A stretch of DNA of 7,934 nt from a virus (Monodnaviria > Loebvirae > Hofneiviricota > Faserviricetes > Tubulavirales > Inoviridae), in the IMG/VR virus record IMGVR_UViG_2645727945_000001. One strand, given 5' to 3'. Both the position numbers and the translations under genes were made by a program. The notes below the pieces were generated by a model. The model did no database searches and was not told the origin of the DNA. It saw only the letters and a program-made list of their open reading frames with translations. This document shows positions 1 to 7,934 of this stretch, piece by piece; position 1 is the stretch's first letter, and each line of letters begins with the position of its first letter.

Positions 1-7
1 ATAAAAA

Positions 8-38
8 GGCCGCTGCGGTGGAAAGTATCGCAGCGGCC
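8..38. other. GC-rich hairpin (10-bp stem ggccgctgcg / cgcagcggcc, 11-nt loop) flanked by A-run and T-run; inner part of the junction-spanning hairpin, possibly a bidirectional terminator
   Basis: Perfect inverted repeat 8-17 / 29-38 seen directly; aaaaa upstream and tttt downstream. Confidence 0.5.
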
Positions 39-40
39 TT

Positions 41-75
41 TTCAACATAACGCGTGTCACATTATGCGCACTGTT
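41..75 (-). other. dif-like site (XerC-arm-like AGTGCGCATAA, extended 11-nt central region, XerD-arm-like TTATGTTGAAA), read on the minus strand
   Basis: Reverse complement of 41-75 reads AGTGCGCATAATGTGACACGCGTTATGTTGAA; 13 consecutive nt match the enterobacterial dif core GGTGCGCATAATGT and TTATGTT matches the XerD arm. Confidence 0.5.
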
Positions 76-331
76 ATCAGGACTGATGAAAACCGAAGGC
101 CAGTCATCACCAGAATTGCTGTAACCCATCAATTTCATCAACTGGCCACATCAATGCATGGACGACTCACGCCTTGCGTCGTTCGTCTCGATAGCTGCCC
201 TTTAAAAGCGGCCTGGCAGGAAGCGCGTTGCGCTGTCTCCTGCTGCTCTGTAATTTCTCCCTGGCTTCGGCGGTCAGGCAGCTGCATCACATGAAACATC
301 ATCATGCCGCCTTACATGCCGCGTTGCGGCA

Positions 332-5332: not shown

Positions 5333-7089
<1,757 letters not shown>

Positions 7090-7173: not shown

Positions 7174-7208
7174 CACCTTCTATTGAAAGGACATAGAGGT
7201 AAATTTTG

Positions 7209-7421
7209 ATGAAAAAAGAAACAAAGCGCGGAGACACAACCGTAAGGATTAACGAAAACAGAAAACTGGAGCTAAAACGAAGAGTGCTGGAAATCGGTAA
7301 TAAAACAGGTGAGCTACTAAAACCATCAGAGATAGTAAACCACTTAATAGACAACTACTTAGATGATGCGGTGAAAGATCTAATAAGCAAAGAAGAACTT
7401 AAGAAAAAAAAGGCAATGTGA
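7209..7421 (+). CDS. Arc/Mnt-like ribbon-helix-helix transcriptional repressor (phage repressor candidate)
   Basis: 70 aa from ATG 7209 (ORF track starts at TTG 7206); RBS agaggt 8 nt upstream; TTVRINENRKLELKRRVLEIGNKTGELLKPSEIVNHLIDNYL matches the RHH beta-strand/helix/turn/helix pattern; divergent from the rep operon. Confidence 0.6.
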   Translation: MKKETKRGDTTVRINENRKLELKRRVLEIGNKTGELLKPSEIVNHLIDNYLDDAVKDLISKEELKKKKAM

Positions 7422-7477: not shown

Positions 7478-7711
<234 letters not shown>

Positions 7712-7903: not shown

Positions 7904-7910
7904 ATACACA

Positions 7911-7934
7911 ACAGTGCGCACAATGGCGTTATGT
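7911..7934 (+). other. dif-like site, truncated by the window end (XerC-arm-like AGTGCGCACAA, short central region, start of XerD-arm-like TTATGT)
   Basis: 7911-7934 acAGTGCGCACAATGGCGTTATGT; inverted partner of the site at 41-75 (15 of 16 nt complementary in the outer arm plus a perfect 9-nt inner arm). Confidence 0.5.

Follow-up and report, generated by a model that had tools for sequence, protein, structure and literature searches.

A two-site, dif-like attP in an Escherichia coli filamentous phage: integration at dif and probable folding of the single strand in the manner of CTXphi

The attachment site (attP) of CTXphi consists of two parts, attP1 with a 12-nt centre and attP2 with a 7-nt centre, and a few base pairs beside the XerC cleavage site must form once the strands have been swapped (PMC3089051). 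The phage protein RstA nicks Ig-1, beside rstR, in two successive prophage copies, and (+) single-stranded DNA (ssDNA) is released (PMC8265649). Among the other mobile elements that integrate with the help of Xer (IMEXs), those of the VGJ type have a single double-stranded 29-bp attP and integrate reversibly, and those of the TLC type begin with an XerD exchange that is completed by XerC (PMC4246890). YpfPhi has inverted XerC/XerD sites, integrates at the enterobacterial dif and forms tandem arrays of two to four copies, and CUS-1, from E. coli O18:K1:H7, is 99% identical to it over 7.1 kb (PMC4266046). Both YpfPhi and CUS-1Phi have been grouped with CTXphi (PMC4246890, PMC4266046) and credited with features by which ssDNA could integrate directly (PMC3089051). 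A further group, the UPphi phages, infects E. coli and integrates at dif as tandem repeats without an integrase (PMC7307601). Here we describe the attP of the inovirus held in the IMG/VR virus record IMGVR_UViG_2645727945_000001 (7934 nt; the whole of this stretch is called the window below), which is integrated at the dif site of E. coli and whose two dif-like sites probably act together as a folded single strand.

The window is the complete 7934-bp genome of an E. coli filamentous phage (inovirus), laid out as one circularly permuted unit: in the tandem prophage of E. coli E700025 (L001) the period is exactly 7934 bp and the window's first base stands directly after its last, the junction between copies reading ...gttatgt / ataaaaagg.... 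All core genes lie on the minus strand. The packaged (+) strand of inoviruses has mRNA sense, as established for Ff phages and CTXphi. By this general rule, and given how the core genes are oriented, the minus strand of the window is the one packaged; in what follows, plus and minus refer to the window and (+) to the phage strand. Two dif-like sites in opposite orientation lie at the permutation point, and the second runs over the window end, the window being a circularly permuted unit. Their parts are as follows.

40-72, minus strand: site 1, AGTGCGCATAA-TGTGACACGCG-TTATGTTGAAA.
62-72, minus strand: XerC-binding arm of site 1, AGTGCGCATAA, 10/11 matches to E. coli dif.
51-61, minus strand: central region of site 1, TGTGACACGCG, 11 nt, beginning with TGT as does the dif centre TGTATA; bases 54-59 are the 6-nt bulge TGACAC.
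40-50, minus strand: XerD-binding arm of site 1, TTATGTTGAAA, 9/11 matches to the dif XerD arm.
7913-7934 then 1-5, plus strand: site 2, inverted relative to site 1, which on the (+) strand supplies the bottom strand of the predicted folded site.
7913-7923, plus strand: XerC-like arm of site 2, AGTGCGCACAA, 9/11 matches.
7924-7928, plus strand: centre of site 2, TGGCG, 5 nt.
7929-7934 and 1-5, plus strand: XerD arm of site 2, inner TTATGT at 7929-7934 and outer half ATAAA at 1-5, 8/11 matches, crossing the permutation point.

The elements of site 2 are also given as a CGCCA centre and a TTGTGCGCACT arm. A spacer of 34 nt separates the two sites, and their centres of 11 and 5 nt compare with 6 nt in dif. 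On re-reading the sequence, the letters of site 1, its arm matches (XerC 10/11, XerD 9/11) and its 11-nt centre proved to be as given in the preliminary description, which had been made from the sequence alone; the partner it had placed in the opposite orientation, with a shorter centre, was likewise found (5 nt, 7924-7928). A single XerC arm with two mismatches or fewer is expected about twice per window by chance, and such a match taken by itself lies within expectation. A composite arm-gap-arm site occurred in 72 of 2000 dinucleotide shuffles (3.6%), with a mean of 0.037 per shuffle, and one site alone is weakly significant. Two inverted sites 34 nt apart, together with a hairpin, are not plausibly a product of chance. 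The rival explanation, that the dif-like sites are fortuitous or that a prophage came to lie beside dif through homologous recombination, is opposed by this paired arrangement and its fold, both far beyond chance, by junctions that are base-identical among strains and phages, and by conservation of the cassette across genera, including the YpfPhi locus of Yersinia pestis; we regard it as effectively refuted.

Natural lysogens place the phage at dif. In E700025 a tandem dimer lies at dif between a LysR-family gene and hipA, with attP intact between the two copies, and in AST240 (L069) a single copy occupies the same place between the same genes, with the same two junctions. On the LysR side the sequence runs chromosome-ATTTAACATAA-TATACA-TTATGCGCAC-T-phage, a complete dif whose XerC arm ends with a phage base; on the hipA side it runs phage-site 2-hairpin-TTCAACATAA-CGCGTGTCACA-TTATGCGCAC-C-chromosome, a hybrid with an 11-nt centre that is kept together with the XerD arm of site 1. 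Expressed as crossover products, the two ends are phage-A-GTGCGCATAA-TGTATA-TTATGTTAAAT-chromosome and chromosome-G-GTGCGCATAA-TGTGACACGCG-TTATGTTGAA-phage. The phage was opened on its (+) strand between AGTGCGCATAA and TGTGACACGCG, i.e. at the boundary of XerC arm and central region of site 1 (window 61/62). XerC cleaves the top strand of dif at the boundary between arm and centre, and we infer that XerC cleavage and the crossover point fall between window positions 61 and 62.

The empty site rebuilt from both flanks around one dif measures 168 nt and occurs uninterrupted, at 99.4% identity, in the E. coli genomes listed, at least 80% of it being held by 316 genomes; the insertion is therefore precise. 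Three phage backbones with this attP, namely that of E700025, the one common to E24377A (L002) and strain 503025 (L005), and the different one of 2015C-4136CT1 (L004), all regenerate AGTGCGCATAA-TGTATA-TTATGTTAAAT beside phage DNA. In 2015C-4136CT1 the chromosomal arm GATGCGCATAA stays at the other junction and the regenerated arm is AGTGCGCATAA, and this difference between the arms confines the exchange to the stretch from arm position 3 to centre position 3. An intact attP junction between copies, which means at least two phage-derived units in tandem, is also carried by 11 of the 15 genomes with a full-length copy. These junctions show integration at dif via an exchange on the XerC side. 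The preliminary description had proposed XerCD-dependent integration and had named three findings that would speak against it: a match to the host dif no better than random, related prophages at sites other than dif, and a dedicated integrase. The proposal survived on all three counts, and the natural junctions support it: the match to the dif of the host, E. coli, is far above chance, the tandem dimer and the single copy both lie exactly at dif, and Pfam and PHROGs scans of 10 open reading frames (ORFs) found no integrase gene.

A variant dif-like site, AGTGCGTATAA-GATATA-TTATGTTAAAT, was seen near an attP-carrying junction in E. coli 2012C-4221 (L011, position 918), and may be a mutated or an alternative regenerated dif.

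Read across the permutation point, 102 nt of the (+) strand are predicted to fold into a single unbranched hairpin of -42.9 kcal/mol (z = -10.9), and none of 200 shuffles folds as well. Its further parts are listed here.

7909-7934 and 1-76: the whole hairpin, comprising both sites and the spacer.
73-76, minus strand: outer stem extension of 4 bp, AACA before the XerC arm on the phage strand, paired with the complement of 7909-7912.
8-38, unstranded: GC-rich spacer stem-loop at the hairpin top, consisting of GGCCGCTGCG, an 11-nt loop and CGCAGCGGCC.

In this fold the XerC arm is an 11-bp duplex with one T.G pair, and the central region is made up of TG/CA, the 6-nt bulge (TGACAC, window 54-59) and GCG/CGC, that is, five base pairs plus the bulge. 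The XerD arm is also duplex: its six inner pairs are perfect, and it contains a 1-nt bulge and one G.T pair. From there the hairpin runs on without interruption into the GC stem of 10 bp (window 8-17 with 29-38), which is lengthened by a flanking A-run (3-7) and T-run (39-42). The preliminary description had pictured a forked hairpin with duplex arms around an unpaired centre. The duplex arms and the bulge are recovered; the fork is not, the spacer forming a GC stem-loop within one continuous hairpin, nor is the centre fully unpaired, five base pairs forming there. It had further likened the architecture to that of CTXphi, with which our folding agrees: the CTXphi attP, folded by the same algorithm, gives the same stem of arm, bulged centre and arm under a branched spacer. 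The YpfPhi cassette folds into the same layout.

A pattern search with site 1 recovered the cassette in Yersinia pestis (YpfPhi locus), Kosakonia, Lelliottia, Phytobacter, Serratia, Pectobacterium, Rosenbergiella, Erwinia and Kluyvera, as well as in 45 IMG/VR viral contigs, and further E. coli variants were found by BLAST. Inoviruses that are unrelated to one another, from 10 or more genera of Enterobacterales, carry this cassette of about 100 nt. A Ypf-type attP was also seen in a metagenome-assembled genome labelled Candidatus Nanosynbacter (Saccharibacteria; L016, JARKOR010000214.1), where the junction flank TTATGTTG-GGTGCGCATAA is identical to that of E. coli lysogens; because this flank looks enterobacterial, the occurrence is most likely a binning error.

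To compare the fold among these, 36 distinct cassettes were aligned (alignment A1, mean column identity 86%), and pairing was scored on the structure derived from the window; a 9.6-kb 'plasmid' record with the cassette (L003) was excluded on account of its degraded hairpin, fragmented genes and an insertion sequence (IS). Standard pairs fill 92.4% of the cells, compared with 29-51% when the partners are slid, and double changes occur at seven pairs, a number that no shuffle attains. The outer stem covaries (A1 columns 5-8 with 102-105), with 5 to 8 double changes at each pair. The clearest case is one central pair, which is G-C in the window, G.T in 2015C-4136CT1 and A-T in E24377A; the adjacent central pair is A-T in Rosenbergiella, and in one further cassette (L019) GCA/TGT replaces GCG/CGC. 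The TGT beside the cleavage site (A1 T19, G20, T21), identical to the first three bases of the dif centre, is invariant, and this fits the published rule on base pairs next to the XerC cut (PMC3089051). Variation is greatest in the bulge (A1 columns 22-24 and 27) and in the loop. Site 2 is kept in 36/36 cassettes and its centre is always 5 nt long, with 10 or 11 nt in the centre of site 1, so that the bulge is held at 5 to 6 nt. The near-invariant arms are uninformative for covariation, and the structure was derived from a single member of the family; within these bounds, the few compensatory changes support the predicted fold.

The reading that we find quite probable is a CTX-type mechanism in which attP acts as folded ssDNA. 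In a phage lacking its own recombinase, 102 nt of the (+) strand would fold into a dif mimic whose top strand is site 1 and whose bottom strand is the inverted site 2. Host XerC and XerD would bind this mimic and synapse it with the chromosomal dif, whereupon XerC would cut the top strands where its arm meets the central TGT and exchange one pair of strands, with TGT homology over 2 to 3 bp stabilising the swap. The bulged and non-homologous centre would block an exchange by XerD, and replication would turn the pseudo-Holliday junction into a prophage. Such a reaction would regenerate a functional dif (AGTGCGCATAA-TGTATA-TTATGTTAAAT) at the 3' end of the phage and leave a dead hybrid with an 11-nt spacer at the other end, two outcomes seen in the natural products. 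Excision by Xer would not be expected because of the 11-nt spacer in the hybrid end, a conclusion taken over from CTXphi (PMC3089051, PMC4246890) and consistent with the inter-copy junction in 11 of the 15 genomes, and new (+) ssDNA would arise by RstA-like rolling-circle replication across tandem copies. By analogy with CTXphi, the release of (+) ssDNA from tandem copies is a likely source of the substrate; that analogy, and also the conservation of the fold, suggest the folded single strand as substrate, catalysis by XerC only, and irreversibility.

Several points weigh against this mechanism. That the substrate would be ssDNA is something we infer from sequence, and the prophage junctions would be identical if XerC acted on a double-stranded site 1. 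Covariation is modest, since hardly anything varies in the Xer arms or the GC stem, and the double changes fall for the most part in the outer stem, beyond the 11-nt XerC arm. The Ypf-type majority has a T.T mismatch at the central pair A1 27/89 and a G.A at one pair of the XerC arm. Because the cassettes were gathered by pattern and BLAST, the sample is biased toward conserved ones, and in tandem arrays another phage upstream may be the source of the XerC arm of site 1, so that the counts are blurred. Lastly, the 111-aa protein downstream of the replication protein, in the position of RstB, has no BLASTP similarity to RstB. The natural rival is an integration of the VGJphi type, in which the double-stranded site 1 of the replicative form would be the real attP, XerC would swap one strand pair and replication would finish the reaction, site 2 and the hairpin being uninvolved. 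VGJ-type elements also give an XerC-side crossover (table in PMC4246890), and the prophage junctions fit a single-stranded and a double-stranded substrate equally. However, the spacer of site 1 has 11 nt rather than the 6 of dif, at variance with the single 29-bp site of VGJphi, and in CTXphi the 12-nt centre of attP1 goes with the folded form (PMC3089051); the retention of site 2 in every cassette with an unchanging centre, and the compensatory changes that tie it to site 1, also speak against an uninvolved second site. Reversible excision is moreover unexpected from a hybrid with an 11-nt spacer, and tandem arrays predominate. For these reasons we consider the VGJphi-type route quite unlikely.

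One highly constrained part of the folded attP lies between the two sites. In the GC stem GGCCGCTGCG/CGCAGCGGCC (A1 columns 42-51 with 64-73), nine of 11 pairs never vary in the 36 cassettes, and most of the stem was left unfixed by the search pattern, yet it is almost invariant, with the loop and the bulge next to it drifting freely. This constraint exceeds what a spacer or a plain terminator would need and hints at a second function. By inspection, the only basis for this reading, the stem looks like a bidirectional terminator. Its A and T runs and its position about 290 nt downstream of the secretin gene, along with a sequence more conserved than a spacer needs, would suit the rival view that the inverted repeat is mainly a terminator or a minus-strand origin hairpin at the end of the operon, its dif-like arms being a by-product, for instance of imprecise excision from dif. 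The stem was not called when the attP junction was scanned for terminators and promoters, its 11-nt loop exceeding the scanner's limit of 3-8, and Rfam returned no family for a full phage unit together with the junction. The arms beside the stem match both dif half-sites with the correct polarity and spacing logic, the crossover falls exactly at the XerC cleavage position in independent lysogens and in different phages, and an additional role of the stem would be compatible with attP function without replacing it. The idea that the repeat is mainly a terminator or replication hairpin is for these reasons very unlikely.

The near-identical cassette was also seen on different phages: 2015C-4136CT1 has a 666-aa 'replication endonuclease', the phage of E24377A and 503025 combines the window's RstA-like Rep with another structural module, and YpfPhi represents a third type. 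One cassette on differing backbones indicates that attP moves as a unit of its own, separately from the replication and structural genes. A more far-reaching proposal would be that attP is a self-contained cassette of about 100 nt moving between unrelated inoviruses (10 or more genera of Enterobacterales, three or more E. coli replication modules) whose stem has a second, sequence-specific function, such as operon terminator, minus-strand origin or host-factor site; we offer it tentatively, as possible and on balance rather unlikely. If it were true, the integration fold would compete with complementary-strand synthesis, and the hairpin would be a physical switch between lysogeny and replication.

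The cassette also occurs on plasmids, where a 170-nt attP query gave 488 matches. In two plasmid-borne cassettes of E. coli (L006 700-730, NZ_CP173491; L067 10080-10110, NZ_CP078136), an ISNCY-family element starts (TGTAAT...) exactly 5 bp past the XerC arm of site 1; the element of the former is annotated as ISKpn21-like, and the latter cassette is without adjacent phage genes. The IS1202 family prefers dif and pdif targets (PMC10132070), a preference with which this position 5 bp past the arm is in keeping (PMC10132070). The left flanks in 2015C-4136CT1 and 503025 read TTATGCGCACT-GACGT-TGTAGTGG (L004j) and TTATGCGCACT-GGCGT-TGTGGTAGC (L005j), respectively, so that the sequence 5 bp past the XerC arm begins with TGTAGTGG or TGTGGTAG. 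These starts resemble the TGTAATGG end of the ISKpn21-like elements found at that distance on plasmids and may be a relic IS end.

The remaining features of the phage genome are the following.

5678-6874, minus strand: Rep_trans replication initiator (rolling-circle Rep, RstA homologue), Pfam Rep_trans E = 1.9e-21.
Minus strand: other core genes, namely a small protein in the pV position, coat proteins, a pIII-like protein of 543 aa, a DUF2523 protein (pVI-like), Zot (pI) and a secretin (pIV).
7206-7421: divergent small ORF.
7504-7537, minus strand: probable RstA-type plus-strand origin hairpin, associated with attP and outside it, ACCCCCGTCTTGTAACACGGGGGTAGA on the phage strand.
7763-7903 and 64-294, plus strand: unannotated ORFs on either side of attP, a 46-aa hydrophobic peptide and a 76-aa ORF.

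The scans of the 10 ORFs against Pfam and PHROGs returned no integrase or recombinase, only Rep_trans, secretin, Zot, DUF2523 and coat or assembly families; the 46- and 76-aa ORFs near attP fell outside these scans and are too short for a recombinase. The two small ORFs occupy the accessory-gene positions that hold ctxAB in CTXphi and orphan ORFs in YpfPhi, and their homologues (45-72% identity) adjoin attP in other prophages. Rep and CTXphi RstA show 33% identity across 380 aligned residues (E = 2e-60), and Zot/pI matches the CTXphi-Zot family weakly (PHROG E = 3.7e-10). The 111-aa protein downstream of Rep was considered as a candidate for RstB, the CTXphi integration protein, and was rejected on the BLASTP result. 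The hairpin at 7504-7537 matches a CTXphi hairpin, ACCCCCGTCTAGTATTACGGGGGTAAA (L068 2985-3011), at 23 of 27 positions and lies in the same place, with attP on one side and the divergent small ORF on the other. A plus-strand origin is its probable role, the CTXphi hairpin being assigned to Ig-1 from its position rather than from annotation.

The phage is a mosaic, combining the replication module of the E24377A prophage (Rep 99% identical) with a structural module common to other prophages. A whole-window megablast against deposited phage genomes gave no match, and protein searches of deposited phages found only relatives below 45% identity, pI leading to human-gut and lemur 'Inovirus' and 'Dulem virus' entries and Rep to CTXphi RstA; the phage is therefore not a named isolate in the phage collection searched. 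Within the literature library searched, no account of this E. coli phage was found.

If the folded attP works as proposed, single-strand integration in the style of CTXphi would not be peculiar to Vibrio. It would be the shared lysogeny device of a broad, mosaic set of enterobacterial filamentous prophages, including those of diarrhoeagenic E. coli lineages, O166:H15 and O139:H28 (strain E24377A) among them. The natural variants would make E. coli a system in which the rules of a folded attP (bulge length, TGT homology, arm mismatches) can be studied. For annotation, prophage callers and dif finders can mislabel such prophages, because they have no integrase, their attP is split across the ends of the predicted unit, and dif is regenerated. 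What goes slightly beyond the literature consulted is the compact attP cassette common to unrelated enterobacterial inoviruses and its unexpectedly invariant GC stem.

Among the systems that use dif, those of the VGJphi and TLCphi types resemble the window phage in their use of host XerCD and dif without an integrase. A VGJ-type element has a single reversible site of about 29 bp, whereas the window has two inverted sites and leaves a hipA-side hybrid with an 11-nt spacer; a TLC-type element begins with XerD, whereas here the crossover lies on the XerC side, though an XerD arm with 9/11 matches is present. The UPphi phages are set apart by their description: they are IKe/I2-2-like, their genes II and V are similar to those of YpfPhi, and they carry a dif copy, a folded two-site attP being absent from the description (PMC7307601).

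The YpfPhi attP is homologous to that of the window. In Y. pestis (L015) it reads GGTGCGCATAA-TGTACGACTCG-TTATGTTGAAAAGGCCGCTGCG...CGCAGCGGCC...CATAA-CGTCA-TTGTGCGAACC, with the same GC stem and the same 11- and 5-nt centres. The two cassettes differ in the bulge, the loop, the outer stem and the partner strand of the XerD arm, and the XerC arm is fully paired in the window type and has a G.A mismatch in the Ypf type. The backbones are unlike, pIV, pI and pVI being 39%, 38% and 45% identical, respectively, to those of the Y. pestis locus, and Rep gave no tblastn match in the 8-kb locus at E = 1e-5. An identification of the window phage with CUS-1 or YpfPhi was rejected on these protein identities (38-45%, Rep without a match), the attP cassette alone being common to them.

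The closest likeness in layout is to CTXphi, whose attP, taken from a deposited prophage, reads AGTGCGCATTA-TGTGGCGCGGCA-TTATGTTGAGG, a spacer of about 90 nt, and CCGTAACATAA-TGGCGAG-TAATACGCATT. Each phage has a pair of inverted dif-like sites on its (+) strand; the over-long centre of one site measures 12 nt in CTXphi and 11 nt in the window phage, the short centre of the other 7 and 5 nt, respectively, and in both folds duplex XerC and XerD arms enclose a centre with a 5 to 6-nt bulge. In both, TGTG follows the XerC arm on the top strand, and the XerD arm is TTATGTTGA, with the G.T at the same position. They also have in common an XerC-side crossover that regenerates one functional dif and leaves one dead hybrid, tandem prophages, an RstA-family Rep, and a hairpin and divergent small ORF in the same order. 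They differ in that the CTXphi hairpin is forked, measures about 150 nt and includes a spacer of 90 nt, whereas the window has a 34-nt spacer, one GC stem-loop and an unbranched 102-nt hairpin. The window phage has E. coli as host and its dif (TGTATA centre) as target, encodes its own secretin (pIV) and is without toxin genes, and no RstB homologue was detected in it by BLASTP. The phage of the window belongs to the CTX-type class of IMEXs, the mechanism of which is itself already known.

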